A DNA stretch of 64,000 nt, taken from Vairimorpha necatrix. Taxonomy: Eukaryota. Shown in pieces: positions 2,704-63,442 of this stretch (positions are counted from its first letter, which is position 1; each line of letters begins with the position of its first letter). The stretch is from the NCBI GenBank assembly GCA_036630325.1, contig CP142732.1, positions 744,001 through 808,000 of the forward strand. The letters run 5' to 3'. Made by a program: the position numbers and the translations under genes. The notes below the pieces were generated by a model that searched no databases, was not told where the DNA came from, and saw only the letters and a program-made list of their open reading frames with translations.

Positions 2704-2751
2704 TGTTATATATTTTGATAATTTTTACCCCCATTATGATAAATAAATACA
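2704..2751 (+). repeat. 5' LTR of element B (48 bp)
   Basis: TGTTATATATTTTGATAATTTTTACCCCCATTATGATAAATAAATACA, identical to 5832-5879. Confidence 0.97.
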
Positions 2752-5700
2752 TGGGGGCGATACCAAATCGAGAGTCAACAAGTGATGGCTGTGGTCAAGA
2801 GGCCAGAATAATGTTACAAGAAATTAAAAGAATAGTTTATAAGCTAGAGTTGGATGGAGTAGATGAGTCTCTATGGAAGGCAAGAATTTATGAAATGGGT
2901 TCGGAAGAAGTAAAGAACTTTATGGTAGAAAGAATTAAAAAAGAAGATAGTTGGTCCTTAATTATTGAAGAAATGGAAAAGGAGGTTAGAAAAGACGAAT
3001 TAAAAAAGAAGGAAGAAGAAGACAAAAGTAAGATGATGGAAATAATTGCAGAGTCGGTTAGAGGAACAGTTCGAGAGGAGCTGGCAAATAGAGGAGCATT
3101 AGGAAAAATAAGGGAAGAAACTTCGGGAGTAAGAAGTAGAGATTGTTTTTACTGTGGTAGATTTAGGCACATGGCAAGAGATTGCTTCGTAAGGAAGAGG
3201 AAAGAAGAAGATAATAAAAATAAACATTTTAACAAGTATTTAATTGTTCATGAAGAGAGTGGATCTACAAGCACAGAACTTAGCGCACAAGAATATAGGA
3301 AATGCGGAGAAGCAAAACGTAAACAAAATTCAAAAAGGAGAGGAATGAGAGAGGATAGAATAGAAGAGGGCCTTGTCATTGAAGATATAAAAGCGAAGTT
3401 TAGAGAAATTTTTGACTTGCAGCAGGAAGAGATCGTACACTGTAAGATAGAGAAATGTAAAATTGAGACGCCACCAGGGAAAAAAGTAGTTAAAAGAGGA
3501 CAAACTATCCCACAGGCGTTGATGGAAAAAACTGAAAAATATATAAAAAGTTTGGAAGAAAGAAAGATTATAAGAAGATCAACATCCGAGTGGAGGAACC
3601 CAATTAGAGCTATAGTAAAACCTAACGGAGGAGTAAGGCTTGTAAGTAATCTAATGAGTTTAAATGACTTAGTTGAAAAAGATCCGTATGAGTTGTCAAA
3701 TATTAGGGACATCGTTAGAGCCACACAGGGGTCTAAATGGTTTACCGTTATAGATCTGAAGGAAGGCTTTTACCACGTAGAGATTGAAGAAGAGGATAAG
3801 CACAAAACGGCCTTTGAATTTAACAGAAAGGTATATGAATGGAACAGTATGGTAATGGGATATAAAAATTCCCCGCAGATTTTACAACGAATAATGAACC
3901 AAATATTTGAAGATTTACAAGGAGAAGGAGTGGAGGTATATATGGACGACATCGTTATACACGCTAGAACTAAAAGAAGGCATGACAAGCTAGTTATAGA
4001 AGCATTGGAAAGATTAAAAAGACATAAAATGAGATTGAATATTGAGAAGATACAGTTTAGCCAACAGTTAGTTAAGCTCTTAGGAGTCACATTGAATGGT
4101 ACAGATATTGAAGCGAATGAAATAAAGAAGAACGAGGCGTTGGAATTCCCGCAGCCGACAAGTGTAAGTGAAACACGAAGATTCCTAGGAATGACAGGAT
4201 GGTTTAGGAACTTTATAAAGAATTACGCGGGATTAACTATTCATCTGACAGATAGCTTGAGAGGTAAAGATAAGAAGTGGGAATGGACGGTTGAAATGAA
4301 TAGAGAGTTTTTAGAGCTGAAAGAAGTTTTGAGAGCGATGGGGAAACTTAGATTGCCTGATTATAGGAAGGAATTTATATTGAGAACGGACGCGAGCAAT
4401 GTAGGGATAGGAGCCGTGTTACTTCAGAAGAACGATAAAGATGAATGGGTAGCAATCCAATGGAGTTCAAAAAAGTTAACACCTACAGAGACCAGATATA
4501 CTATATCGGAGAAAGAAATGTACGCGGTATTTTGGGGGATAAAAAGATTTGAATACGAGTTGCGCGGTAGGAAGTTTAAAATCGAGACGGACCATAAAGC
4601 CTTGGTTGAGATTAGAAATAAACCGTGTTTTAATAACAATAGAATAAATAGATGGATTGAAAAGATCCAGGAATTTGACTTCACCATAGAATATAAGAAA
4701 CCAGAAGAAATGGTGGTGGCTGACGCGTTAAGCAGGATACATATGGAAGACGATGAAAAGAAAAAGAAAATCAGAGAAAGGACCGCCAAGCAGATAGAGG
4801 GTAAATGGAAAGCGCACGTCGATGACGCAGAAGGAAAAAAATATTGGAGATTTGATTCAGGACGGAAAGTCGAGATACCACCAGAAGAGTCGAGGGAAAG
4901 TTTGATGCAGGAATACCACGAAAAAGTTGGACATAGATGTATGACAAGTGTATATTACGCGATGCGGGAAAGATTTTATTGGCCCGGAATAAAGAAAGAC
5001 ATAAATGAGACAATACGAAAGTGTGTACAATGTCAAATATATAATAGAAAAAGACTCGGTGGATGTGAGTTTGTAGATACTACACGTTATTTAGAAAAGG
5101 TTGCTTTGGATCTCATTGATTTTAGAGACGCAGGTAAATACGTATTGGTTGCGATAGATTATTACACTCGAAGAGTATGGGGCACGGTAATGGAGAACAA
5201 GACTGGAAAGAATGTGACAGAATTTTTAAGTAAGTTGTGTGAACAAGGAAAAAAAGCCCGAAGAGATTATAACGGATAATGGGCGAGAATTTATCAATGA
5301 GGGGTTTAGAGAGTTGTGTAACAGACTAGAAATTAAACATAGGAAAGTAAGTGTCGAATCACACAGGAGTAATGGCAGAGTCGAGAGGGTTATAGGTACG
5401 CTGCGAGAGAGCATTCTGAAGACTAAAGAAGGTACATTTGCAGAGAAGGTCATGGGAAGCATTGAAAAATATAATATGAGTTACCACACGGCACTAAAAT
5501 GTACACCAATAGAAGCGACAGAGGATAAAACTGGACATGTAATGATTGAAAATAGCCCACAGGGGAAATATGGAAAACTGTTTAACAGGGGGAAACGGGA
5601 AAAATTTAAAGTAGGTGAGTACGTGAGAGTAGCTAAGAAGGAAAACTTGAAAGGTGCGGATAAATATTCGAAAGGTAGGTTTTTAGAGAGTGGGAAAATT

Positions 5701-5808
5701 ATAGAGAGATGTGGCAATGATTCTTATATAGTTAAGTTAGTAAATGGAAGATATGTAAAGAAAAGGCACTATGATCTAAAAAGTCTGCTTGGGTTAAGGA
5801 TAAAGTGA
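2736..5808 (+). CDS. Gag-Pol polyprotein (CCHC knuckle, RT, RNase H, integrase), +1 frameshift in the A7 run at 5249-5255
   Basis: CFYCGRFRHMARDC; YMDD; TDASNVGIGA; ADALSR; H..H..C..C; ITDNG/NGRVER. Start placed at the ATG after CCCCC inside the LTR. No D(T/S)G protease motif between the knuckle and RT. Confidence 0.9.
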
Positions 5809-5831
5809 GACTAACCGTCTTGGAGGGGGGA

Positions 5832-5879
5832 TGTTATATATTTTGATAATTTTTACCCCCATTATGATAAATAAATACA
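5832..5879 (+). repeat. 3' LTR of element B (48 bp)
   Basis: Identical to 2704-2751, preceded by the PPT and followed by TSD TATGA. Confidence 0.97.
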
Positions 5880-6589
5880 TATGATGCAAAATTTAGGAAT
5901 GTATTGCATTTATGATAACTTATAAAAAACAGCATTTATCTCAAATTATGATTACGTAAAGTGCGAAAGATGACGCATTTTTTTAATAAAGAAGTGTTCT
6001 GTAGAAACCCCTACTAATTTTATAAAAATTTATACTGTAGCAAACCTTTATTTTTTTCTTAGAAGCTTCGAAATAAACTATATTAGGATTTTATTTCTTC
6101 TTCTCTTATAATCATATAAAACTGTATTATACTTAGCAAATATTAATGTTCATATAATTTCTTAGTCTACAAAGATTTTCGTAAACAATAGAAGAAATTC
6201 TCAAATTAAATAAGCGATATTCAGAAACTATCAGTTCTTATAAAGTATGACTTTAACTTAAATTGGTAATTGTGCCACCTAATTTTTTTATATTTTTCAA
6301 AAATTTTTTAAAGGCTTTATATGTGTAGTAATTACACAATAATAATAATTTTTCATATTTACAAATATTTGACATTTAGAAAAAATATCTTATAACCCTT
6401 TTAAACGTTATTTATAGAGCTAGCTAGACAATAAATAAATTATATTAACTTCGATATTTTTCTCATATAAAAAAGTTTTTTGATTGTTTTTTTCTACACT
6501 GATCAATATGAGATCACCTCTAAATACTTTTAAAAAACACGAAGCTGTGTTTATTTGATACAACAAATCAAATCATTATTATAATTAGT

Positions 6590-7410: not shown

Positions 7411-9133
7411 TGTCAAAGTTCGGAGCGAACGCCCGTTCGGAGCGGACGCCAGGGGTAAAAAATTAAAAAAAAACTCTTCAGTGAGGATCGAACCAAAAAA
7501 TAAGAACAAACAAATGTTCGTCTTAAATGATAACCAAAGTTTTGTCTTGATTTTTTGAGGGGTAAATTTTTGCTATTTTTTTATAATAATGGGAGGGAAT
7601 ATTGAAAAAAAGGAGAAAAATAAAATAAACAAAATTTTTAGTACTTTATTCAATACCAAGCAACCTTAGATCTCTAGTACTTATTTCTTCTATTATAATA
7701 TCATTATCATCTTCTTTGCATAATTTTACTTTATTAAATTGTATTATGTCTGTTACAATATAGACCTCAGCATCTAAATGTTCATAAAGAGAATGTCTTC
7801 TGGTATTGACGTTGTTGTCCAAGTAAGGTCTTATAAGGACTCTATCTCCTATTTTAAATTCTAAAAAATTATTTTTCCACATACTTCTTTGTACCATTCT
7901 ATCTGCAGCAGTTTGTGTATGAATTCTTGTTGCATCATGATAAATTTCATTTAAAAAAGGGTTTGTGTTATTAAGAGCATATAGTTGTCGGAATCTCATT
8001 AGTATTGCAATCTAGAACATCTACTAAACTTTCTCCAGTGCGTTCTTCGTCCTCACGCTCTTGTTCGTGATTTTCGCTATTAATCGATTCTAGACTCGTC
8101 CATTATGTCCCTAATGGGTCTACCAAACATTAAAGAGAATGGTGTTTGTCTCGTAGTAGAGTGTCTTAAATTATTATATGACCAGGTAACTTCTTCACGT
8201 ACTTTGGTCCATTGACCCAAAATATTTTTTGTCCTGAGAGTAGATGCAATCATCCACTTTATTGTTTGATTGCATCGTTCTATCTGTCCTTGTATCCATG
8301 GACATCTAGCTCTCCCCCTTACATGTCTTATTTCATATTTCTGACATAAATCGACGAGTGTTTGATTTACAAATTCTCTGCCGTTATCAGTATGAAGTAT
8401 ATAACAAGAACCAAACGTCCTAAACAATGTTTCAAAAGCATTCCCTAGACTAATACTTGATTTGTCATATAGTGGTACCGTCCAACAAAATTTGGTAAAA
8501 GAATCTACAATATTCAAAAACCATTTATATCCATCATTGAGTTCGTGATATAGCCGGAGATCAATCAAGTCTGCAACATATCTTTCCCTTGGATACTTTG
8601 CTACAATTGGTCTGATAACTGGTCTAGTTGCTAGATTTCTCTTTGATTGACATATATCACAGCTATTCAAGACCCTCTGTATATCTTTTTGTGTTGCGTC
8701 GTAGACTTTTGTTGTAATAATGGAAACAATCTGTCCCGTCCCGCATGCCCATTTGAGACATGAATCAATTTTATATAATCGATTTTGAATCGTTGCTCGT
8801 TGGTGGTAAAGAATCTTAATGATCTATATAGACCTACTTTAAATCTCACCGTGAGCTCTGTGATACCGTCAATTATATCCTCAAAAAGGAAAAAATTTTT
8901 GTGCCTTTTTCCTGAAAGCATCTCGTTCTTGTTTTTCTATCAACCTTGTTGGAACAATACCAGTCTGTAAAAAGACAAAAACTTCTTGTCTTTCATTGTT
9001 ATTCAATTTTATTTTCATGCCCTTAAAATTAAAGAAATTTTAAATACAAATTACAAATAAACACCAATTTTTTTTTAATTTTTTACCCTTCTCAAGTAAG
9101 CATTTTCCCTGGCGTCCGCTCCGAACGGTGACA
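7411..9133 (-). mobile_element. Ginger2/TDD-like integrase DNA transposon, copy 1
   Basis: TGTCA...TGACA ends with TIR GTTCGGAGCGGACGCCAGGG / CCCTGGCGTCCGCTCCGAAC; rve integrase on the minus strand with no RT; closely similar copy at 60415-63442. Confidence 0.82.
7646..9018 (-). pseudogene. Ginger-like DDE integrase/transposase, frameshifted into at least three pieces
   Basis: HVSNGHAGRD..CDIC zinc motif, ADLIDLR, VDSFTKF, LHTDNGREF, QGQIERCNQTIK, HSTTRQTPF, C-terminal FKIGDRVLI; GGGC-ATG at 9018. Confidence 0.8.
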
Positions 9134-9812
9134 ATTACTGTTAGGCAATGTAATGGAAAACAAGACTGGCGTATTTACCGGGAAGCTTGCCTGTAGCAAG
9201 GAAGCATTCAATGATGCTACGGTTTGGGGTGCCGTGAAGACCGGAGTTAAAAGAGTTAAAGGGAAAGGATTGTTTATTGTTATGAAAAGAGTTTGGTTTA
9301 TCTGTTTTGTAGAAGGAAGAGTGTTTGTTATTGTTCTGATGTTGTACCATGTTGTTCATGGAATTTCTCTATTTATATTACATAGTAACCAATAGAAAAG
9401 AAATAAGATTTGGCTGACCAATAATAGTCGAACATAACTGATCGTTCCGAAGAAGCATCAGCGTTTAAGTATTTATTGGTTTTATAAATTATGTGGTATG
9501 ATCCATTATACCACAAAGACTGTAAAGTATTTTATGTCATATTAAAGAATTTTTAAAAAAAATTAAATCATAAGGTTCGACTGGCAGGAATAGATGCATT
9601 TAAAATTTGATTGTGGGAATATAATATACAGAAAAATGTATTCGAATAAATTTATGCTAAATCAATCTCATACACAAGCCATCGTGGAACCGTAAACACT
9701 TTGTTTTTATGGTCCTTTTGTTACAATATTTAGTTCTCTCTTTTATTAATTCCCGTTTTCTACTTCTAGCAACTTACCATGTTCCGTTTTAGAGTCATTT
9801 TGGTTCTAGGAA

Positions 9813-9941
9813 AATTCACCGACCATCAATTCACCGACAACAATTCACCGACAGCAATTCACCGAAAATCAATTCACCGACCAACAAATTCACCGACAAC
9901 AAATTCACCGACAACAAATTCACCGACAACAAATTCACCGA
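9813..9941 (+). repeat. subterminal tandem AATTCACCGA repeat, 9 copies (5 inverted copies at about 12020-12090)
   Basis: 14-16-bp units AATTCACCGA(CAAC/A) read directly. Confidence 0.92.
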
Positions 9942-20763: not shown

Positions 20764-20812
20764 TGTGATATATTTGTATTATTTCTATCCCCCATTATGA
20801 TAAATAAAGACA
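20764..20812 (+). repeat. isolated (solo-like) 49-bp LTR related to element B
   Basis: TGTGATATATTTGTATTATTTCTATCCCCCATTATGATAAATAAAGACA; shares CCCCCATTATGATAAATAAA exactly with LTR B; TG..CA ends; no clean TSD. Confidence 0.75.
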
Positions 20813-29501: not shown

Positions 29502-32130
29502 TGTCATTTTGGGTTTGGTTCCTTTATGAATAAAATTACTATCATGACGAAAAAAAGATAATGTGGTTTAAGTAAGACACGCGATCAAGAGACCAGAAAT
29601 CTATATAAAGAGATCAAAAGAATAGAGAGCAATGACGAGAGCGAAGAAATAAGCTGAAGAGTAATCTCTAAAGCGGACATTACGACAAGCAAATGTCGAA
29701 CTGTAGGATCTTATTATTGAAAAAATATTAGTAAACTTAAAAAACGGAATGAAATTATCTAGGAAATCGAAAAGTAAGCTCAAGAAGAAGAAGAGAAAAA
29801 AAAATATTATAAAAATATTAGAAGAGTCAGTTGAAGGATTCAAAGAAAACTTAAGCAATGTTATTAGAGGTGAACTGGTAAGAAGAGTAGCAATACCAGG
29901 AAAAAAATTTTTTATTATAAAAGAAAAAAGAAAGCTAGTACGTATATCTAAAAATAAAACATATAACTACATGCTGTTTGAATCATAAAAAAGGTAAGGA
30001 AAAGGAGAATAAAATTTTAAGGACTACGGTATATGAGATAATAATGTGGCAACCAAAAAGAAATTTCGGGAAGCATGTATATAAATTTAGAATAATAACA
30101 GTAGATGGATGTAAAAATATAAAGCGCACAAACGAAGTACATAAGTAGCAGTTTCAATGACAGCAATAGTAATAAAGAGTGTAATTATTTAGAAGGGTAT
30201 GATGAGTATGAGGCTACGGAGTGTAGAAAGATTGGTTATAATTTTAAAAGAGAAAAAATGCGTCGCGTTGAAGGAAGCTATTGATTAGTTTGCAAATGTT
30301 TTAAAACCATCGGTAGAAATAACAACGCTTGGTACAAAAGTAAAATAGTTTATAGGGACAACTAAAGGTACAAAAGTTGTGAGAAGATGTCAAAAAAATT
30401 TACAGTGTACTAAAAATGAAGCCACGAGATAGTTGTAATTATTATAAAATGAAGGTTTGATAAGGAGAAATGGTTCTAATTAGAAAAGTTCTATAAGAGC
30501 GATGTAGGTGCAAAATGCCGGCGGATGCGAATTGTGAGTAATCTTTGGGATTAAATGATTGAAGAACCGCCCCCCCCATGTGTTACCTACTGCAAGAGTC
30601 ATTATCTAAGCGTCTCAAAATCGAAAATATTTAGTGTGATTAAATTAAAGATGTATCGCGCCACATATAAATAGAAAAGAAGCAAAAATTTAAAACAGCA
30701 TTTAAATTTGATGGAATGTGTACGAGTGGAACAGCATGGTTATGGGATTTAAGAATGCTTCGAAAATAATGCTTAAGACAATAAATGAGATTTCGAAAAA
30801 TATTAGAGGAAAAGAAGCGGAACTATACCTAGATAATATTGTGATAGCTAAAGATGATGGGCAGCAAGACAAATCATTTTTAAGTGTACTGAAAAAGTTT
30901 TCAAAGTCATGTCTTAGGGTCAATTGTCAAAAAGTACAATATGGATAAGTAGGGTTAATTTATTGGGCATGTCCATGAATGGAAGCCATGAAATCCTCAG
31001 AGATAACGAAGAATAGGCGCTATAATATATTCGAAGGAGTGTGAGAAGGAATTGTAAATATTTTTTTGCCTAAACAGGTTGGTTTAGAGAATTTATTAAA
31101 TATTGCTACGATAACGTTAATTTTGTATTGGCACAAAAAACGAAAGTAAATGGAAGTGGACTGACGTAATGGAAAAATGAATTTTTTTAGTAAAACAATA
31201 GTAAGCAATTTACAGCTTTTTATGATTCCAGAATACAGTAAAGTATTAAAATTAAGTAAAGATGCATATAAACGGCCTGGGATCAGTCATTTACAGAAAA
31301 AAAAAAATGGGATGTATTTTTTACAATAGGCCTCGAAAAAATTAACGCCAACGGAGAAAAGATATGCAATAACAGAAAAATGATGTTAGAGGTCTTATGA
31401 GAAATAGTAAAGTTTTCAAATGAATTGAGAGGAAGGACTATAATGCCTGATGGAAATCAGGAAACCCCCTTTTTTAATAATAACAGAGTAACACGGTGGA
31501 TTAAAAGTATACAGGAGTATGAGTTTAGTCTGCAATGAGTAAAAGGAAAATTTATGGCATATTTGGATGCTTTTTTTAACAGAATAAAGATGATGCAGAG
31601 AAAAATGTACCTTAGATAAGAAAAAGTTACAACACAAATTTAAGTGGAGATTGATAAACACACAATGATCAGAAATAATAAGGAGTATTTGGAATTTCAT
31701 TATGAAGTACAATCGGAAGACCCCAGGTTATAGAGAGAAAAATAAAAGCCCCACCGAGGAGGTAAACATTAAAGCAGTAAAAGGAACTTATTATAAGCTA
31801 AAAAACAATATTATCTGACGGGAATGAAAGAATAGGTTTCATGTAAAATTAGAGCGCGCGATATTCATCGAATAGGCAATAGAAAGAACAAAGGCGATGT
31901 TAAATTTGTTACACCGAGTTATTAAGGCGAGAAATGCTCATTTTTTCCTTGAAGATTGCGATGTCAAAAATTGGGTTTGATAGAATTAACTACTTTAATC
32001 GGCATTAAACGCCTGTTATATAAAATATAAAATTACAAAGATGATTATTGGTGTTTAAATGATTAGTTTTAAAAAGGGGACTTCCCTGAAATAATTATAA
32101 CCGACAATGCAAAGAGTTTGTAGTAGATAC
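29502..32130 (+). pseudogene. decayed Ty3/gypsy element C (same lineage as A and B), truncated in the integrase
   Basis: DQETRNLYKEIKRI matches Gag B GQEARIMLQEIKRI; YEWNSMVMGFKN, LYLDNIVI, ASKKLTPTEKRYAITEK, FPEIIITDN; candidate 43-bp 5' LTR 29502-29544. Confidence 0.85.
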
Positions 32131-32238: not shown

Positions 32239-34330
32239 TGTGATGTACATTGCTACATCACATGAACAGATGTCAAATATGTCATCTGTCACTGATGTCC
32301 AAAGACATGTCAAGCATTTCAGTTACATGTCAAGATGAGTCACACAAACAAACAAACAAACGAAAGTTGCATGGTCGTTACTACATTCGTAAGTACGCCA
32401 ATGTTTGTAGTTTAGTGTTGACAAGAATCTTTAAATTAAAAATAAACTATAAAAGAAAGTCTGTCTGTGAAGGGCATGGAATATATAGAATCCAAGAGAG
32501 AGACTAAAACCATCAATGAACATATTTACATTAAAAACTATTTAGAGAGATATTATAAAAATGGCCATGTACCCCGGATACATGACATAATTGAATTCAA
32601 TTCCCACAAAGTATCAAAAGGGGACAACAACGCAGTAATTAAAGAAGCGTTAGAATTTAAGTATACGATCGAAGAGATCGATTTAGAAGTTAAAAAGAAC
32701 TTAAGCATAATAAAAAACATAAAAGAATTTAATGAAATGGAGCTAGATACATGGTTTGAGGATTTCAACCAAATCAGCAGAAATAAAAAATGGGATTTTA
32801 AAAAAGAAAAAATCGCCTTAGGAGAATTAGTGCGAGATCCCACATTGCAACAAATATTTGGATTACCAGATTTAAAAAAAATAAGAAGATATATTGAAAA
32901 AAATGTAAGTCAAAGATCAAGTCCTGAGATGCTACATTTAAAGCTACAGGCATGTAAACAAATTAATTTCAGATACATTAAAGAATATTTGTTTGAAATA
33001 AAGAATCTAGTAGATCAGTATGCTAGACTAGAAAACTTAACGAGAAAAGAATACGAAAGAAAGTTAAGAGAGAGTTTTTTCTTGGGATTAGGTTTTTCCA
33101 CTCGTCTTAAGATATTAGAGCTTGGAAAAAATAACGTCGAAGAAACTATGACGTATTTAGAAACAGTGGAAGAGTGTTTGATTTTTGAAGGAAAAAGGCG
33201 TGAAAAAACATATGAATCAGTTCATAATGATAGATTCAAGTTTGAGACCGAAAAGGACGGTTACAAGAACAATAAATGGTGCCGCCTCCATAAAAACAGT
33301 ACGCACAATACAGAGGATTGCTTTAGACTAAACAATACCTCAGAGCAGCTTAAGAAAAATTTAGAAAACATAAAAATGCCGAATATTGTTCCAGAAAAAT
33401 TATTTACAATTAGAGAAATAAAGAAAAATAACATACCAGAAGAGGTAGTATTTAATAGAGAAAATAAAGTCGAGAACATTAAAATAAAAAATCAAGAAGT
33501 AACTAATAAAGAAAATTCAAAAGAAGTGAAAACAAAACATGAAACATCGAAAAATGATGAAATAATAGCGAAAACGCTTAGTCATGAGAAACTACAGAAT
33601 GTAGTTGGAACAAATATATTAAAAGAGAAGGATTTAATTGTCAAAAGAAATACAGATATTGACAAGAAGCTTAACAATCCGATGAAAAATATAGAAAAAG
33701 AAAATAAAAAAGATGATAATAAAAGAAATCGAGGTAATAAATTAATAAAAATAAAATACCGTGATAAATATAAACAAAAGAAGACATATAAAATAAGAAA
33801 GAAAAAAAATGAAATATTAGAAAGTATAAACACGAAGAATAAGCAAAAAATGTTAAGTAGTGTTATAGATAAAGCAATAGTAGACCCGCCGAATATAATA
33901 TCTAAACATGAAGGGTGGTCAGCAACATGCAACAATGAATGGAGAACTTTAAAAAATTTAAAGCTTTAGGAGAGGGCAGAATGTGATGTACATTGCTACA
34001 TCACATGAACAGATGTCAAATATATCATCTGTCACTGATGTCCAAAGACATGTCAAGCATTTCAGTTACATGTCAAGATGAGTCACACAAACAAACAAAC
34101 AAACGAAAGTTGCATGGTCGTTACTACATTCGTAAGTACGCCAATGTTTGTAGTTTAGTGTTGACAAGAATCTTTAAATTAAAAATAAACTATAAAAGAA
34201 AGTCTGTCTGTGAAGGGCATGGAATATATAGAATCCAAGAGAGAGACTAAAACCATCAATAAACATATTTACATTAAAAACTATTTAGAGAGATATTATA
34301 AAAATGGCCATGTACCCCGGATACATGACA
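32239..34330 (+). mobile_element. non-autonomous gag-only LTR element, 2092 bp, 349-bp LTRs
   Basis: LTRs 32239-32587 and 33982-34330 (TG..CA, 2 mismatches); 5-bp TSD CTTGC; PPT AGGAGAGGGCAGAA; single ORF with no RT or integrase core. Confidence 0.93.
32476..33969 (+). CDS. Gag-like protein with a CHHC zinc-knuckle variant
   Basis: Open 497-codon ORF starting at GGGC-ATG inside the 5' LTR; capsid-like helical region (ELDTWFEDF, KLRESFFLGL); KWCRLHKNSTHNTEDC. Confidence 0.8.
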   Translation: MEYIESKRETKTINEHIYIKNYLERYYKNGHVPRIHDIIEFNSHKVSKGDNNAVIKEALEFKYTIEEIDLEVKKNLSIIKNIKEFNEMELDTWFEDFNQISRNKKWDFKKEKIALGELVRDPTLQQIFGLPDLKKIRRYIEKNVSQRSSPEMLHLKLQACKQINFRYIKEYLFEIKNLVDQYARLENLTRKEYERKLRESFFLGLGFSTRLKILELGKNNVEETMTYLETVEECLIFEGKRREKTYESVHNDRFKFETEKDGYKNNKWCRLHKNSTHNTEDCFRLNNTSEQLKKNLENIKMPNIVPEKLFTIREIKKNNIPEEVVFNRENKVENIKIKNQEVTNKENSKEVKTKHETSKNDEIIAKTLSHEKLQNVVGTNILKEKDLIVKRNTDIDKKLNNPMKNIEKENKKDDNKRNRGNKLIKIKYRDKYKQKKTYKIRKKKNEILESINTKNKQKMLSSVIDKAIVDPPNIISKHEGWSATCNNEWRTLKNLKL

Positions 34331-37143
34331 CTTGCACTAGCACTCAATTTACTTATTCCTTTTTATATTAAAATTACAAAATAAAATCTTTACATGGCCT
34401 AACAATAAATTTTAAACCAAGATTAAGAAATAAAAACGTTCTACTTATAATTTTAACCATATAAAAATTAGTAATTAAATACGGATTTTTATATATAACC
34501 CTTTAAAAACGACAGAATTCTACGAGAAAGTTAAGAAATAATAAAGAAAATGATTTTATATACTTTAAAATCAAAGTTTTGTCAAATATGCTACGGGAAC
34601 TTAAAACGACGTTTTTAAATACAAAATCAAATGAGATGTACAACAAAAAGTTTCAGAAAAATAGTAATGATAACAAAAAATAATTTAAATGGCTAAATTG
34701 CCTTAACTGATAATTTGCAGGTCATGTTTCTTTTTGTTAAAAATACAGCAATAAAAACAATTAAAAAATATATAGTCTCATAAAAAAACAATTTATAGAC
34801 TTATCAGAAAATTTGGCAATCACATAATTGGTAATAAAACTATTGGAGGACCAGGTAAAATTGTAGAAATCGACAAACTAAATTCGGAAAGAGAAAAAAC
34901 AACAAAGGCCACAAGAAGGTGGCGTATGGGTACTTAGGATGATGGAAAGGACGACGGAACGAGGCTTAGTCTTACTCAAAAATTAAAATAGAAAGGCCGT
35001 GACTCTCGAAAGATATATAAATATTATGTACATACCGGAAGTATCATACATACTGATTATTGGAGAGGGTGTATAAATTTAAATTAATATGTTATATAAA
35101 CATAATACTGTTAACCATTCCCTTGGTTTTATAAATCCAGGGAATGGTGTTCATACCAACACGATCGAAGGAACATGGGCTGGTGTAAAAAGAGTGATTC
35201 ATGCCAGATGTAAGACTGAAAAAGGTGTAAATCTATTTTAATTTGTTTACATTTAAAAGAAATAATTTTAAGAAAAACCTTCGAAAATATAAAAAAAGTA
35301 CATTTTCTTGTATATTTCTTGAGTTATTTTAAATTTATAGGAATTTCGTTTTATTTTGTATTTTTAATGTTAAAAGTTCTAAGATATTTTTGTTTGTTTC
35401 TTGCTCCTCCTTTTTTTGCACTTCAATTTTAGTGTTCGAAAAAATAATGTGAACATCCCCAAAGAGATAGGGTCTGTGGAATCCTCATCCTCGATGATAT
35501 TAACTCGTAAAATGACACTAAGAATTCAAAAAAAAACTAAAAGCGAGAAATACGAATTTTTTTTTGCGTCTCTGTAAAAAAAATTAACAACGATGTTTGT
35601 TGTTTTTTGATGATTATCAGATTTATCGTGTGTTTCTATCGTCATTATGATAATGTTAATGAGGAATCCAATAATCTTAATTAAAGAGGATTTATCATTT
35701 TTAATTTTTAATAGACATATATTATATAATTAATTTCTATTGTATAAAACTAAAGATATGTTGTTTAGTTCAAACATTTTTATAAACAATGAACAATTAT
35801 GTATGTGGACACATGGATGTGTTGAATGCTATTTATCGCTAGAACTATAATAATAATCAATGACAATGAAATGTTTACGTCTATATTAAATTAAGAACAC
35901 ATAAAATTACACTCGGGAATTGTTAAACGCTGAACATGGAAGTTGATGCAAAAAGACAATATTCCGAAACGCTGCTAAAATAAAAAAAAACATATAATCT
36001 TATGCTTACAATTTAAATATAAAAAAATTAGATATTACGTTCAATATATCACTTAAAGAAATTTATAAAATTTTATCGATATGTTCTAAAAGAAAATTAA
36101 ATTAAATGTTTTTAGCGACGAAATTAATTAGAACCGCGAGCAGAAATTGTTATTATATAATGCATTTGATAGCCTCTACGTAAAAATAACATAAACTGGA
36201 TATTCATTGTAAATTATATTTTTAATTATATTATTAAATCATAAACAAACAGTTAAAGATTATAAATTATGTTTATTGTTTGACAACATTATTAAAAGTT
36301 TTAAAAGGCTTATATATTCAAAATTTGCTCTTAAATACATTTATTTATTTTTTAAGGTTTCATTTAGAATTATATATACATATATATATAGTATAAATTT
36401 TTATCGCAAGTAACAAAGCTTAAATACAAATGAGAATTATAGAGAAAACATCAGAATGCACTTTCTTAGAACACCGGCAGGGACAGGCCGAGAGAAAATC
36501 TGAAACCAAGAACATAGTATAGGTGATTAAAAGGTAATGGGACCAAATAGAGTGCGCGTTAGTGGGGGGTTCTTATAAAAAAACCTAATTATGGTTTCTT
36601 AAATAAATAATTTTTTTGCAAATTCTTATAACATGAAAATTATTTATGACAAGAAAAAAATATAATCAATAAATTTATTATTGTAATTTTAGGTATTTAT
36701 ATCAATAAATGTATATTGTGACGTTATTAGTTTGGCATATTGATTCATAAATAATATTTTTAAGTCTAATACGAAACATTTAAAAGAAAATTTATAGAAT
36801 TCTTAATCCATTCTATCTTACTGAAGAAGATAGCAAAGTATAAACTTTTGATCGAAGACGAGTATACGACCAAAACAATACTGGAGTAAAAATGGATAGA
36901 GCTGTCAGTACATCGGCTTGTAAAGTAGGTGCTGAAAATGGCTTGTTAGTAAAAGAATCTAAAGATCAATTGAATAAAATGAATATATAAAATTAGGTTT
37001 CTGATTGTATAGAGCAAAATTGCTTGCAAACACCTAGAATTTATGTGCTAGCAAAAACTGATTTGAAAATTAACAAATATTTATATCTTCTGTAGTCTTT
37101 GTATTTTTTAATCATTTTCGCAATTTTTATGATAAATTAAGAT

Positions 37144-40100
37144 TGTTGATTATAAATAATAAAATAAATAAACCCCTATTCAATGATAAATCCTTATATA
37201 AACAACATGGTGAAGAATAATGATCAACCCAGTATAAACAGGAAAAATTTATCCCAAGAATTGATGAGATATGAAATACTTTTATGGTTTAAAAAAATGG
37301 AATCATTGGATAAAATTGAGTATGTTTTGAGTAAAGCCAGTTACGAAATAATTGAATGGCACTCAGCATTTATGGAACATACAAGAAGTTCCTCTATAAC
37401 ATATGACAAGTGGAAAGAAGCACTGTATAAAGAATTTAAAGAAGATGAAATTGAACTAGTGGATGTTTACCGCTTTTTTCAGAAAAAGGACCAGAATGCA
37501 AAAGATTTCATTGACGAAGTTAAAAAGAAATCAAAAGTAGTAAAAATGGACTCAAAAGAATCTATGAAAATTGTAATGCTCGGGATAAGAAGAGAATTTC
37601 CAAATTTAAGAGCATACATAACGAGCTGTTGTTCTTTAAATGATATCGACCTTAAGCGAGTTCTAATGATGGAAAAAATTGATAAAGAATTGAACGATAA
37701 GATAAGGACTATTTTGGGAAGAGAAGAAAAAGGAAATAAGAAATCTGGTCGTAATGGTTCTAAGGAAGTTAGAAATGATATAATTAAGCAGAAATACGAT
37801 AACAAAAAGCAGCTTCAAATAAATGAAGTCTTAGAAGACTCAGAAGAGATTATCAATAAAGAGAATTTAGTTTATATCGAAGACAAAAAATTTTTAGTAG
37901 TCTTTGATACAGGATCTAACTACAATTTTATTTCTGACACAGTTAGATTAAAAGCTGGTTTAAAAAGAAGAAAAAACCATGTCAAATTGAAATTCAGAAC
38001 CTGTCTTGAGGAAACCTTTGAAGTTAAGTATCATGTTTTATGTGACGTTACTTATAAAAATACGAAATATCAGTTAAAATTTTTTATTTTACCAAAAGTA
38101 TCCAAAGAAAAAATTTTGATTGGAAAAGATGGAATTAAAGTAATGATAAACTCTAAGGATCAGTATGAATGTGAAATAAATACAAAAAAAGACGCTATAG
38201 TTGTAGAGAAAGTATTTAGCTTCCCCAAGAAATTTGAATCTGGAATGGAAGATACGATAAAAAATTTGATAAAAATGAATTATATAGGCCCATCGAAGTC
38301 TACATGGCTAAATAACATTCGCCCAGTAGTAAAACCAGATAACAGTATAAGAATAACACTTAATTTAGTTGCACTAAACAAATTGGTAGAATTAGACAAA
38401 TATAGCCTACCTAATATAGAACACTTGGTATTTAATCTGAGAGAAAAAAAATTTTTTACAAAATTGGATTTGAAAGATGGTTTCTTTAACATTCCTCTAG
38501 CGAAAAAGGATCAACATAAAACTGCTTTTCGATTTAAGCATTTCTTGTATGAATGGAAAGTAATGCCAATGGGATTTAAGAATGCCCCGGCCATATTTCA
38601 GAGATATATGGATCATGTTCTAAAAGATGAAATAGGGAAGGCGTGTATCGTTTACGTAGATGACATCTTAATTTTCGGAGAAACAAGTGAGGAACACGAT
38701 AGAAACTTATGCAGAGTAATAAAAATATTAAAGGACAACAATCTCAATATTAACGAAAAGAAAACAGTTTCAAAAGTTAATAAAATAAAATTTTTAGGAT
38801 ACAATATCGAAAGAAATAAAATATCGGCCGAAAAATCGAGAATAGAAGTTATAAACGAATTTCAAAAACCAGAGAATAAGAAAAAACTTCAAGAATTTTT
38901 AGGAATGATAAATTACAATAGAAAATTCATTCGCAATTGCGCAACGTTATGTGAGCCACTATACAATCTATTAAAGCAAGGAGTAGAATTCATATGGACA
39001 GAAAAACACCAAAACAGCTTCGAAAAATTAAAGGAGGTATTAAGTAAACAAATAGAGCTACATCAGCCGAATTACAATCTTGAATTTATCCTGGAAACAG
39101 ATGCGTCAAACACAGGTCTAGGTGCTATATTGGCCCAGATCGACAAGGGAGTCAAGGTCCCAATCGCATTTGCTTCAAGAAGTCTAAATCCTCCCGAAAG
39201 AAATTATTCAATAAGTGAAAAAGAATGTCTAGCTATGCTATGGGGAATGGAACATTTTAAATACTATCTATATGGAAAGGAATTTACTGCTATTACAGAT
39301 CACAAGGCCCTGGAAGCACTTAACAAAGGAGAAATTAAATCTCTGAGAATCCACAGATGGCTAGATCGACTTAGCAACTTTATATTTAAAGTGATTTATA
39401 GAAAAGGTGAAGAAATGTCACACGTGGACGCTCTTAGTAGGAGCTTTGAAGGAAAAGAAAATATTGTTAACGAAGTGAAGGAAAGTGAACCTATATCAGA
39501 ACAAGAAAAAATTAAATTAATATTCGAAAAGCATAAAGAAATGCTACATAGAGGTGCAAAAACAATTATTTATAATTTAGAAAACGAATATAAATGGCCT
39601 AATATCAAATCGCTAACCAACAAGGCAATAGCTGACTGTACCATATGTAAGATGTATAATCCGAAGAAAAACAAAAAATTTATATTCGTAACAGCGTATT
39701 GTCCAGGCGAAAAGGTGGGAGTAGACATATTAGGTCCTATAGACAAAAATTATATAATAACAGGATTAGATTACTACACCAGAAAGGGATTTGCTAGGTG
39801 TATTAACGATAGGTCTGGACAAAAACAGCCCAATTTATAATGGAAATTAATAAAGAGTTACCAATAAAAACTCTTGTTTTTGATTGCTCAAAAGAAAATT
39901 TAAGCAACTGTGTTAAAAATGTTGCAAATACAAATGATATCAAGTTACACTACACGACACCATTCCATCATCAATCGAACGGAAGAGTGGAAAGGTTTAA
40001 TAGAACTCTACAAGAGATGGTACATAAAAACGAAAGTGACAAGTTTTTAAAAACAAAAGTAAAGAAAGCTATTCTAATTTATAATAATTCTTATCACGTA

Positions 40101-40485
40101 GGGTTGGGATGTACACCAAACGAAGCCTTAGATAAAGAATATGCAGAAACGGTTAAAAAAACACAATTTAACAATATATTAAATTATTCAAAAGCAACAG
40201 AGAAATTGCCGAAGGAAGAGGTCTTTACTGTTGGGAATACGGTTTTAATAAAGAACGAAAACGTGACAAAGGGAAAACCGAGATATTGGAAAAAGGGTTG
40301 CATCTTAAGTGAATTGGAAGGAAATTCATATTGCATAAAAATTGGCACCAAGTCTTACAAAAGACAGACTTCGCAACTAAAAAGACTTGTGGACGAGGAG
40401 CTAATTCTATAAGGGGAGGGATGTTGATTATAAATAATAAAATAAATAAACCCCTATTCAATGATAAATCCTTATATAAACAACA
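37144..40485 (+). mobile_element. complete Ty3/gypsy retrotransposon D, 3342 bp, 64-bp LTRs
   Basis: Identical 64-bp LTRs 37144-37207 and 40422-40485; 5-bp TSD AAGAT; PBS TGGTGAAG at 37208; PPT AAGGGGAGGGA 40411-40421. Confidence 0.97.
37183..40412 (+). CDS. Gag-PR-RT-RNase H-IN polyprotein, -1 frameshift at the A5 run about 39821-39825
   Basis: FDTGSNYNFIS protease; YVDD; ETDASNTGLGA; HVDALSR; H..H..C..C; SNGRVERFN; ATG inside the LTR after CCCC. Confidence 0.92.
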
Positions 40486-41294
40486 AAGATAATAACAAAA
40501 ACAGGCGAGAAAGATCGATAGAAGTGTTTTTCACTCGCATATAATTAGCGTTTGAAAACATAATAAAAAAATAATATCCATTTGATTAAATAAAAAGGAT
40601 ATATACATTTCTTTTTTATCAAGTGATGATAAAATTTTTGCTTGCGAATTTGCGAAAAAATAATATTATTATACCAGTTTATTATTGTGCAATTTTACAA
40701 CTCTATAAAACTTTTTTTAAAATTAGTTTTATACTGAATTGGTGTTTGCTCCGTGATTACATATAACGTGTATATCTAAAGTTTTAAATCAATACATGAG
40801 AAATTGAAGTTGCTTTTTGACAGCACTGGAAATTGATTACAGGGACATTTATTCGTTCTTATAATTTCAGCATTGCATACAAACACACTTCTATCCAGCG
40901 CTGAAATTTGGTCACGGTTATCTATAGTTCGAATTAGTCAATGTTTAAATATCGTGGATTTTAAATTATCTATAATAAATTCATTGGGTTTATAAAAAAT
41001 AACTCTTTAATTATGTAGTCACGAGAGAAAATACTTATAATATTTTCGACAAAATATTTTAATCTATATACGTAATATTATTATGATTAATTGAAAATAA
41101 ATATCAAAAATCATACGTCAGTTAAAAGGGTATAAGTGTGCATTATATATATTCTATCAATTTTGTAAATCTTTATATGTTTTTAATAAAATAAAATATC
41201 CAAAGAAAATATTATAATGGTAGGTTTTTCCCATTAAAATTCTCAAATGTAAACATATATAAAAAGTATTAATAAAAATTAAAAAATTACCCTT

Positions 41295-60414: not shown

Positions 60415-63400
60415 TGTCACAGTTCGGAGTGGACGCCAAGGGTAAAAAATTAAAAAATTTCTTCAGTGATGGGCGAACCAGAAAATAAGAACAAATAAAT
60501 GTTCGTCAAAAATGATTGCTCAAATTTTGTCTCGATTTTTTGAGGGGTAAATTTTTGCTATTTTTACAGGGTTTTGCATTTTTTTAGTCCAACTTTTGCA
60601 TTTTTTAGTCCAACTTTTGCATTTCTATAGTCCAACTTTTGCATTTCTATAGTCCAACTTTTGAATTTTTATAGTTCAACTTTTGAAAAAAAATAACAAA
60701 AAACCCCGAATTTGATACAATGAACAATCAATAGAATTATGTGTAAATAATATACAACCTCATTTAATTAGATAAACTCGTTTTTCTGCCTTGCCATTTC
60801 TAGCCATCTTGCCATATTAGTGTAGAATCCATTACACGAAAGGCTAAAATCATTGTTCAGCACTTGCTCCAAATCTGTTTATACTGTATTATTTGAGTTT
60901 CGTATAGCAAAAAACCTCGATTTTATCATAGAAAAAAAATTCTTCAATAGGATTAAGTTGTGGGGAATATGGAGGCAAAAAAACATAAGATATGCCTAAT
61001 TCTCTTAGCTTATCCAAAACTTCTCTTGAATGATGAAATTTAGCATTACCATTATTAAAATTTTTTGAGGATTTGTTTGGAAAAAATCTACAAGATGCCT
61101 TTCAATAAATTCGACGAATAGAGCAGAACTATATGCGCCCCTTTTCATTTAGTATGCTATAATATTCGATTTTGAAATCACGCAAAGACAACTTAAATTT
61201 TTGCCTCGATTTGCGGGGACTGTTTTAAATGCTTTTTTCTTTTTATAAGAAAACCCATAATGCCTTGTGGTATGGACATTAAATCCAGTTTCGTCTAAAA
61301 AAAATCAAATTTTCTAGTGAATATCCTGATATTTCCATGGCATATTCAGCTCTTTTATCAATTTTGTCTTGAGAATTACGCTCTGCAGGAATTAGAGACA
61401 ACCTTTATCTTGTAATATTGAGATATTTCAACTTTCGAGAAATAGTAGACAAAGACATTAAACATTTGCTAAAGTATTTAGTTCTTCTTTGATTTCACTA
61501 AGAGTCTTGTCATTACTACGTGCAATTATGTTTTTTAGCACAAGGTCGGATGGCTTTAATACTCTAGGAGATGATACTTTGATACGATTTATTGTACTTG
61601 TAGAACAAATGGATTCTCCCTTACACTTTTCCTATGTATCCTCCAAACTGTTTTATAACTTAAATCTAATGTAGTAGCTATATCTTTTAATGTCAAGTTT
61701 TGTTTTTTATATGTTTTCAAATAAGTTTTAAGACATCTAGAGTGACTGTAGATCTTGGTTTTCTGGGCATTAGGGGATTTTTTTTCAAAAAAAAGGCCTT
61801 TGGAAATAAAAAAAAATGGACTATAAAAATGCAAAAGTTGGAGTATAAAAATGCAAAAGTTGGACTATAGAAATGCAAAAGCCGACTAAAAATGCAAACC
61901 CCTGTAAAATAATGGGAGGGAATAATGAAAAAACAGAAAAATAAAATAAACAGAATTTTCAGTACTTTATTCATTACCAAACAACCTTAAATCTCAAGTA
62001 CGTATTTCTTCTAATAAAATTCCATACATCTTCTCTGCATAATTTTACTTTATTAAATTGTATTATGTCTGTTACAAGATATACATCTGCATCTAAATGT
62101 TCATAAAGAGAATGTCTTCGGGTATTAACGTTATAACCAAAAAGTGTCTTGTAATATGTTTATCTCCTATTTTAAATTTTAAGAAATAAGTTATCCACAT
62201 ACTTCTTTGTACCATTCTATCTGTAGCAATTTGTGTATGAATTCTAGCTGCATCATGATGAATTTCATTTAAAAAAAGGTTTGTGTTATTAAGAACATAT
62301 ACTTGTTGTATTTCTTTATTGGTATTGCAATCTAGAACATCTGATAAACTTTCTTCAGAGCGTTCTTCGTCCTCACACTCTTGTCGTGATTTTTGCTATT
62401 AATCGATTCTAGACTCGTCCATTATGTCCCTAATGGGCCTACCAAACATCAGAGAGAATGGTGTTTTTCTCGTAGTAGAGTGTCTTAAATTATAATAAGA
62501 CTAGGTAACTTCTTCTCATACTTTGGTCCATTGACCCAAAATATTTTTTGTCCCGAGAGTAGATGCAATCATCCACTTTATTGTTTGATTGCATCGTTCT
62601 ATTGGTCCTTGTATCCATGGACATCTAGCTCTCCCCTTATATGTCATATTTCATATTTCTGACATAAATCGACAAGTGTTTGATTTGCAATTTCTCTGCC
62701 GTTATCAGTATGAAAAATATAACAAGAACCAAATGTTCTAAACAATGTTTCAAAGGCATTCCCTACACTAATACCTGTTTTGTCAAGCAAGTAATGTCCA
62801 ACAAAATTTGGTAAAAGAATCTACAATATTCAAAAACCATTTATATACTTCATTGAGTTCGTGATATAGCCGGAAATCAATCAAGTCTGGAACATATCTT
62901 TCCCCTTGGATACTTTGCTACGATTGGTTTAATAACTGGTCTAGTTACTAGATCTCTCTTTATATGACATATATCACAGCTATTCAAGACCCTCTGGATA
63001 TCTTTTTGTGTTGCGTCGTAGATTTTTGTTTGCAATAATGGAAACAATCTGTACCGTCCCGCATGCTCATACGAGACGTGGATTAATTTTATATAATCGA
63101 TTTTGAATCGTTGTTGTACATGGTAAAGAATCTTAATGATCTATATAGGCCTACTTTAAATCTCACCGTGAGCTCTGTGGTACCGTCAATTACATCCTCA
63201 AAAAGGATAAATTTTTGTGCTTTTTTTCTGAAAGCATCTTTTTCTTGTTTTTCTACAAACCTTGTTGGAACAATACCAGCCTGTAAAAAGACAAAAACTT
63301 CTTGTCTTTCATTGTTATTTAATTTTATATGCCCTTGAAATTAAAGAAATTTTAAATACAAATTACAAATAAACAACAATTTTTTTTTAATTTTTTACCC

Positions 63401-63442
63401 TTTTCAATCAAGAATTTTCTCTGGCGCGACCGAACGGTGACA
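60415..63442 (-). mobile_element. Ginger2/TDD-like element, copy 2 (pseudogenised) with a nested insertion
   Basis: TGTCAC..GTGACA ends; 5-bp TSD TTTAT (60410-60414, 63443-63447); colinear with 7411-9133. Confidence 0.87.
60567..61904 (-). mobile_element. IS630/Tc1-mariner-type element, 1338 bp, inserted at TA
   Basis: TA-CAGGG...CCCTG-TA; subterminal about 21-bp tandem repeats TAGTCCAACTTTTGCATT; frameshifted transposase from CCCCTA-ATG at 61770 with LDETGF and FLPPYSPQLNPIEEFF; empty site visible in copy 1. Confidence 0.9.

Follow-up and report, generated by a model that had tools for sequence, protein, structure and literature searches.

Predicted Gag reading frames extending into very short long terminal repeats in Ty3/gypsy elements of Vairimorpha necatrix and their relatives

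In an element with long terminal repeats (LTRs), renewal of the LTRs requires an RNA whose start lies inside the 5' LTR and whose end lies in or beyond the 3' LTR. The retroviral LTR is organized as U3-R-U5, with a very short R in some viruses, and AAUAAA is located in U3 or R. In the yeast element Ty1, the GAG start lies in a 5' LTR of about 330 bp, and the leader measures about 50 nt. Among the microsporidian Ty3/gypsy elements are the Nbr elements of Nosema bombycis, which Xu et al. reportedly described in 2006. Our analysis concerns elements of this superfamily in 64,000 nt of the Vairimorpha necatrix contig CP142732.1 (GCA_036630325.1, positions 744,001 to 808,000; this whole stretch is "the window", numbered from its first letter), above all two complete copies, B and D. 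As predicted from the letters of the window and of relatives elsewhere, the actual finding is that the Gag frame runs through the ATG at the junction of the 5' LTR with the primer-binding site (PBS) and on into the LTR, in two clades.

A PBS inside gag is not new, Ty1 being the precedent: there, the PBS lies within GAG and is translated, as the passages of PMC4974528 on this point state. B and D resemble Ty1 in that their reading frames (from 2736 in B, from 37183 in D) are open from a start upstream of the PBS. Ty1, however, belongs to another superfamily, its start codon lies away from the LTR/PBS junction, and its two open reading frames (ORFs) are joined by a frameshift. Microsporidian Ty3/gypsy elements with Gag and Pol fused in one frame are described for Anncaliia, Nosema and others in the relevant passages of PMC4202319 and PMC13174016. 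They share host group, superfamily and the fused Gag-Pol with the elements presented here, but those passages of PMC4202319 are silent on LTR length, PBS position, start codon and promoter motifs. A literature search yielded no description of these four properties in any microsporidian LTR element, its coverage excluding supplements, which possibly contain LTR lengths. The logic known from retroviruses is needed here as well: U3 must supply a promoter and R the repeat used in strand transfer, and a poly(A) signal is required. Here, however, the LTR in its entirety falls short of most retroviral R regions in length, little or no U5 would be left, and R would be coding. For microsporidian cellular genes, the passages of Peyretaillade et al. 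2009 (PMC2803860) dealing with gene signals describe a CCC-like (rarely GGG-like) run just upstream of the ATG, an AAATTT-like signal before it, and AAUAAA, with 5' untranslated regions (UTRs) of less than 7 nt in Encephalitozoon. Transposable elements are unmentioned in that paper, whereas an A/T-rich stretch, a CCC-like run and AAUAAA occur in the LTRs described below.

The reading frame across the LTR/PBS junction

Element B comprises the following features, where RT stands for reverse transcriptase, TSD for target-site duplication and PPT for polypurine tract.

2704-5879, + strand: element B, a complete Ty3/gypsy element
2699-2703, + strand: left TSD copy, TATGA (sequence)
2704-2751, + strand: 5' LTR, 48 nt, TG..CA, 100% identical to 5832-5879 (repeat search, blastn)
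2717-2727, + strand: A/T-rich stretch GATAATTTTTA, AAATTT-like by resemblance only to the signal in the cited passages of PMC2803860
2728-2732, + strand: C-run CCCCC, 3 nt 5' of the internal ATG, a host-type CCC-like motif
2733-2735, + strand: ATT spacer between C-run and internal ATG
2736-2738, + strand: LTR-internal ATG, the sole ATG of the LTR and the putative main Gag start
2742-2747, + strand: AATAAA, in frame Asn-Lys of the Gag extension (ATG ATA AAT AAA TAC)
2751-2753, + strand: junction ATG, terminal A of the LTR plus TG of the PBS, in one frame with 2736 and Gag
2752-2764, + strand: PBS-like TGGGGGCGATACC, zero spacer after the LTR, coding for Gly-Ala-Ile-Pro
2736-5279, + strand: Gag-RT-RNase H-integrase frame (ORF list, Pfam), broken in an A-run at about 5249-5256
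3144-3185, + strand: CCHC zinc knuckle of Gag, CFYCGRFRHMARDC (translation; the relative P0004 gives a weak zf-CCHC match)
5260-5808, + strand: integrase continuation in the +1 frame, stop TGA at 5806-5808
5822-5831, + strand: PPT, GGAGGGGGGA, directly before the 3' LTR
5832-5879, + strand: 3' LTR (repeat search, blastn)
5880-5884, + strand: right TSD copy, TATGA (sequence)

Element D is organized in a similar manner.

37144-40485, + strand: element D, a complete Ty3/gypsy element
37139-37143, + strand: left TSD copy, AAGAT (sequence)
37144-37207, + strand: 5' LTR, 64 nt, TG..CA, identical to 40422-40485 (blastn)
37158-37172, + strand: AATAAA copies, upstream of the C-run
37173-37176, + strand: C-run before the internal ATG
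37183, + strand: LTR-internal ATG, the only ATG within the LTR
37207-37209, + strand: junction ATG, 24 nt after 37183, in frame, open
from 37208, + strand: PBS-like TGGTGAAGAAT, adjoining the LTR
37183-40412, + strand: Gag-protease-RT-RNase H-integrase; the frame changes at about 39840
40411-40421, + strand: PPT, AAGGGGAGGGA, overlapping the pol stop codon
40422-40485, + strand: 3' LTR (blastn)
40486-40490, + strand: right TSD copy, AAGAT (sequence)

The Pfam positions of B, D and P0004 follow the Ty3/gypsy order RT - RNase H - integrase; the integrase lies 3' of RNase H and not before RT, as it would in the Ty1/copia order. The TG..CA direct repeats and the 5-bp target duplications of B and D (TATGA, AAGAT) are likewise those of Ty3/gypsy elements. 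A sequence starting with TGG directly follows the LTR, and purine tracts directly precede the 3' LTR; a scan of the window for tRNA genes returned none. The Ty3/gypsy elements of the window are compact (3.2-3.3 kb) and about 97% coding, the share from internal ATG to pol stop being 96.8% in B and 96.6% in D.

LTR copies within the window were located by blastn and decayed element remains by tblastn, which added the 3' part of an element (A), a solo LTR and a decayed element (C).

1-1692, + strand: element A, 3' part only (RT/RNase H/integrase; tblastn, 55% identical to B), with in-frame stops, e.g. at 692-694
1645-1654, + strand: PPT of A, GGAGGGGGGA (sequence)
1655-1692, + strand: 3' LTR of A, 38 nt, TG..CA (sequence)
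1664-1666, + strand: pol stop TAG inside the 3' LTR of A, seven bases before AATAAA
1674-1679 and 1678-1683, + strand: AATAAA copies in the LTR of A (sequence)
1683-1685, + strand: single ATG of the LTR of A, 9 nt before the terminal A at 1692, without a stop between
20764-20812, + strand: solo B-family LTR-like copy, 49 nt (blastn), with CCCCC, ATT, ATG at 20797, AATAAA and terminal A at 20812
29502-29544, + strand: putative 5' LTR of C, 43 nt, TG..CA, tentative in status and boundaries, with GGG, ATG at 29526, AATAAA and a junction-position ATG at 29544
30352-31943, + strand: decayed RT/RNase H remains of C (tblastn, about 28% identical to B)

The LTRs of A, B and D carry exactly one ATG each, from which the frame is free of stops up to the terminal A, located 9, 15 and 24 nt further on, respectively; hence, a reader's choice among several ATGs is excluded. 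In B, the 15 nt amount to five codons. The solo copy, whose flanks show no clean target duplication, has the same 15 nt from ATG to terminal A as B.

A preliminary description of this DNA had placed CCCCC-ATT-ATG at 2736, AATAAA at 2742-2747 and the junction ATG at 2751 of B, all of which is correct in the sequence, as are the phase it gave for 37183 and 37207 in D and for the ATGs of A (1683/1692) and the solo LTR. Its claim for C is borne out only as far as the two ATGs are concerned, which lie 18 nt apart with an open frame between; a stop follows four codons on, the PBS is not TGG, and a search for the 3' LTR of C found none. Five cases in phase out of five had been counted; all are in phase, but they represent about four semi-independent cases at most, since the solo LTR belongs to the family of B, C has decayed, and A contributes a 3' LTR only. 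The interpretation offered in that description finds partial support, and its emphasis on the junction ATG needs correcting. An LTR ending in CA, followed by a TGG-starting PBS with zero spacer, gives CATGG automatically, so that this ATG is in itself no finding, and the C-run fronts the internal ATG instead. That only the 5' LTR can form the junction ATG holds by construction and is uninformative; moreover, the 3' flank of one relative (L003, see below) happens to start with TG.

Start signals of host genes and predicted ones in LTRs

CCC occurs within 15 nt 5' of the first ATG in 10 of the 18 non-element ORFs of at least 150 aa in the window, and GGG in two more; across all 2242 ATGs of the window, CCC lies within this distance upstream in 5.7%. 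Among the ORFs counted are genuine genes, such as those for a proteasome subunit, a phosphatase, PAP2 and a methyltransferase. Host examples are ttttttccccttt ATG and ttaccccttt ATG, and the LTR contexts read tttttaccccc att ATG in B and aataaacccc tattca ATG in D. Judged by these motifs, a match of the C-run-then-ATG layout of the LTRs to the host genes of the window and to the published microsporidian signals is supported. The preliminary description had called CCC or GGG near the ATG and very short UTRs typical microsporidian signals, in agreement with the host count and with the quoted passages of PMC2803860.

Five further LTRs that fit the layout come from contigs binned into two bacterial metagenome-assembled genome (MAG) records. 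These records, G001 and G002 (behind L003 and L004, and labelled Clostridium and Turicibacter), yield 51 and 16 retroelement-profile matches spread over many short contigs, which indicates eukaryotic, microsporidian-like contamination of both bins. In the lines below, a slash marks the LTR end.

L003: 3' LTR, 38 nt, A-like; CCCC followed by AATAAA and, 9 nt short of the end, ATG
L008 (D clade): 58 nt, identical pair; no internal ATG; AAATTTT, AATAAA, CCC; junction ATG 19 nt on, the first after the run
L018: 75 nt, identical pair; ..TTTTTAACCC ATG .. AATAAATAAA .. GACA/TGGCG; internal ATG 30 nt before the end, in frame, open
L014: 176 nt; GGG ATG (CCC ATG in the 3' copy) 48 nt before the end, in frame; AATAAA between
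L022: about 128 nt; end ..CCCA/TGG; junction ATG straight after the C-run

Two more loci, L012 and L016, were kept out of the counts, their LTR ends or PBS being unclear or conventional. Five elements have a verified 5' LTR (B, D, L008, L018 and L014), and in every one of them the C/G-run is followed by a first ATG that reads into Gag in frame without a stop. The offset of the run from the LTR-internal ATG is -8 in B, -10 in D, -14 in L003, -3 in L018 and, for GGG, -3 in L014. Because the run sits before that ATG, we consider the internal ATG the likelier main start where it is present; in L008 and L022, the first such codon to follow the C-run is the one at the junction. AATAAA follows the ATG in B, A, L018 and L014, where it reads in frame as Asn-Lys in the phase that avoids TAA, and it precedes the C-run in D and L008. 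Hence, both R-type and U3-type placements of the poly(A) signal occur.

The LTRs of L014 differ just 5' of the internal ATG: the 5' copy reads GGAGGG ATG (L014:190-197) and the 3' copy GGGCCC ATG (L014:3970-3977), so that G-run and C-run are variants of one motif position within a single element.

According to the model that we favour, these are ultra-compact, recently mobile Ty3/gypsy elements whose LTRs, shrunken to 38-64 nt, probably serve as promoter, first Gag codons and R at once. As the RNA must start inside the 5' LTR, the promoter of B would have to lie within the 48 nt of the LTR, overlap them or lie downstream of them. The first 30 nt or so of the LTR (U3) would constitute a host-type minimal promoter, with an A/T-rich stretch and then a CCC-like run, and transcription would start a few bases 3' of the C-run. 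The remaining 10-30 nt or thereabouts (about 17-19 nt in B) would be R for strand transfer, its bases also forming the beginning of the mRNA and codons 1 to 3-8 of Gag, and in B and A holding AATAAA as well. Translation would begin at the LTR-internal ATG, almost leaderless, and proceed in frame over the LTR end; the junction ATG (CA/TGG) would be an in-frame second start, and the sole start where the LTR has no internal ATG. By translation through the PBS, the tRNA primer would dictate Gag residues 2-5 after the junction Met.

Protein relatives and alternative readings

A search with the frame of B retrieved 111 relatives, many of them single frames of about 1000-1050 aa on contigs of 3.0-3.8 kb (e.g. 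P0004, 1017 aa/3141 nt; P0007, 1014 aa/3145 nt; P0037, 1001 aa/3035 nt); named sources include Nosema granulosis, Vairimorpha apis, Enteropsectra breve, Nematocida minor and Pancytospora. A script sorted them into 49 below 38% identity, which were set aside, 23 truncated at the N-terminus or without an M start, and 39 with a complete N-terminus. A start of the form M-x(n)-[Y/H/D/N]-M-[G/A/V] is present in 23 of these 39, with an extension of 3-6 codons in 22 and of 29 codons in one. All 23 have Y, H, N or D ahead of the second Met, i.e. an NAC codon, as an LTR end ..ACA requires. The residues that follow fall into few classes (MGA-I/T/Q-P, MANT-R/K, MA-S/T/P.., MV-E/K), as expected if the PBS is read as codons. 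The closest named match to B, a Vairimorpha necatrix 'reverse transcriptase' (P0003, 94% identity), begins MINNYMGAIP and was sorted as truncated owing to an internal gap. For the D clade, 8 of the 25 listed matches at E <= 1e-114 have the extension, and 12 are truncated or unclear. Searches elsewhere contributed little: the best 150 matches of a protein-representative search were mostly long multi-copy proteins with few usable N-termini, none of which were counted, a scan of viral contigs found no relatives of the elements, and a scan of metagenome contigs found only L001 and L002, rearranged or truncated copies without a readable 5' end.

Despite an A/T-rich and stop-prone composition, the frame is open through the PBS in 34 of the 39 B-clade proteins and in 13 of the 25 listed D-clade proteins (the other 12 being truncated or unclear). 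These counts bear on the conventional layout, in which the PBS would belong to a short untranslated leader and Gag would start at a downstream Met (2811 in B). Such a layout is usual in retroviruses and in Ty3, whose PBS lies outside gag according to the passages of PMC4974528 concerned, and in-frame Mets are indeed found 20 codons downstream in both B and D. However, besides the open frame, a transcript initiated in the LTR would carry earlier in-frame AUGs with no stop in between, and we judge this layout to be very improbable.

By chance, 10% of simulated sequences with LTR composition and 15% of those with window composition would have an in-frame ATG no more than 16 codons upstream and not cut off by a stop; measured from all 1868 ATGs outside the elements, the value is 17.8%. 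Nominal binomial P values for the relatives range from 1e-12 to 1e-16 if shared ancestry is ignored, and by these sequence comparisons the pattern appears far above chance. It would nevertheless be conceivable that the agreement in phase has no function and reflects shared ancestry plus ascertainment, as ORF finders extend upstream, the C-run being incidental. In favour of such an explanation, there is kinship among the families, the solo LTR being of the B family itself, C and A can be checked only in part, and the protein N-termini derive from gene callers. Yet the pattern is present at the DNA level in unrelated LTR sequences of 38-176 nt, the C-run equals the host grammar measured in the same window, and among 131 more distant Ty3/gypsy proteins with an M start, which served as control, the pattern is absent from 130 and spurious in the remaining one, where it falls inside an RT fragment. 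An origin without function is thus already disfavoured, and highly unlikely in our assessment.

Several points weigh against the favoured model, in which Gag starts at the LTR-internal ATG. The preliminary description held that the LTR mimics a host promoter; the C-run-then-ATG layout agrees with this, but in the LTR of A, CCC is absent from the 20 nt around the ATG, where the only run is GGG at -24. In B and A, the AATAAA of R, just behind the cap, would have to go unused at the 5' end. A CCCTCC..ATG located farther out in L022, 40 nt before the LTR end and out of frame, would create a short upstream ORF if transcribed; the distal ATG of the inferred LTR of L004 is out of frame as well, and in L016 the ATG apparently follows the PBS-like site in the conventional manner. 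Furthermore, database N-termini are the output of automatic gene callers, and related families are not independent trials, as a phase is inherited once it is coding, so that the nominal P values are overstated. Finally, the internal ATG is not universal: 11 of the 39 N-complete B-clade proteins and 5 of the 25 listed D-clade proteins (MVE..) start at the junction Met without an extension.

The last counts would be accounted for if the junction ATG (2751 in B, 37207 in D) were the true Gag start and the internal ATG a tolerated in-frame passenger, an arrangement that we regard as unlikely. It presupposes either transcription starting between both ATGs or skipping of the cap-proximal first AUG. 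L008 and L022, which have no usable internal ATG, fit such a start, and the junction ATG is in frame in nearly all families, always with G at +4. On the other hand, the C/G-run directly precedes the internal ATG in B, D, L018 and L014, and a passenger ATG is expected in 10-18% of families, not in 59-62%. Moreover, among the five B-clade proteins with neither type of start, three are unclear, while P0020 and P0054 seem to read CA/TGG in a different phase. Their upstream start would be kept although the junction is crossed out of phase, which hints that the LTR-internal start is a maintained feature.

If the internal start and the transcript map drawn from it are correct, the elements may tentatively be placed among the most compressed autonomous LTR retrotransposons: 3.0-3.6 kb long and about 97% coding, with LTRs down to 38 nt, a portable promoter of about 30 nt, an R of about 10-30 nt, a nearly leaderless mRNA, a Gag N-terminus dictated by a tRNA and, in clade B, no recognizable protease. 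They would illustrate how small retroelement control regions can become under tiny host promoters and leaders. The same bases would be under a dual constraint, pairing with the tRNA and encoding the Gag N-terminus, and a minimal promoter of about 30 nt, active at any site of insertion, would be useful for parasites with few genetic tools. Structure-based LTR finders have a default minimum LTR length of about 100 nt. LTRs of 38-75 nt are under this minimum; as in the named protein matches, the elements are then labelled as nothing more than 'reverse transcriptase' or 'endonuclease' genes, and they contaminate bacterial MAG bins.

Mobility, frame breaks and further features of the window

The mobility of B was examined in Logan contigs of a public run (X1), which is DNA-like and possibly, but not certainly, the sample behind the assembly. 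A 533-nt contig joins 2697 to 5879 (8 ambiguous letters; shorter side 36). At this joint 3181 nt are missing, equal to element B plus one TATGA, so that the contig represents the site without the insertion. Together with the identical LTRs, this empty site shows that the insertion of B is young and polymorphic between or within samples; therefore, a 48-nt LTR is enough for transposition. The X1 contigs leave about 2137-2670 of the B flank uncovered, and no inference was drawn from this gap.

A 3101-nt contig of X1 over 2735-5836 has one letter fewer at 5249; hence, the frame break of B is not common to that contig and stems either from a change specific to the copy or from a homopolymer error made in assembling. 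The stop of A at 692-694 has a different letter in a 1665-nt contig of X1, and both defects are copy-specific or assembly errors. We considered a shared programmed frameshift for the frame breaks of B and D and rejected it, because their directions are opposite (+1 in B, -1 in D) and the X1 contig differs at 5249. Between A and B, positions 1864-1901 are 74% like the LTR core of B (..TTTACCCCC ATG, then an A-run) and could be what is left of an old LTR, or else a promoter-like site that arose by chance.

Of the aspartic protease that Ty3/gypsy elements carry between Gag and RT, D shows a weak sign at residues 230-315, where Asp_protease_2 matches with E 6.7e-5 and narrowly misses the curated cut-off. 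In B and P0004, no Pfam protease family was found at E <= 0.01, and only about 140 unassigned residues separate the zinc knuckle from RT in the B clade. This Ty3/gypsy lineage may lack a protease or may have one that is very divergent. The pol frame reads through the PPT and stops within the 3' LTR in A, L003 and L008 (L008:3535-3592), so that LTRs are coding at both ends, and the C-termini of the relatives P0025 and P0037 spell a conserved PPT region.

The window has a GC content of about 28%, and a table in PMC12449221 lists 28.34% for the Vairimorpha necatrix genome. Between the elements lie ordinary genes, among them those for a proteasome subunit, a PP1-type phosphatase, PAP2, a Glu/Gln-tRNA synthetase, a GNAT-bromodomain protein and an MFS transporter. 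Inside or adjoining the decayed element C, two 300-nt direct repeats (99% identical; 32239-34281) surround an ORF of 497 aa (32476-33969) that has a GGGC ATG start context and matches no Pfam family; this is possibly another mobile element. A segment of about 1.6 kb is duplicated near both window ends (7467-9114 and 60452-63426, 86-95% identity), and a tandem array at 9808-9941 consists of about 7-9 copies of the 15-nt unit CAACAAATTCACCGA.

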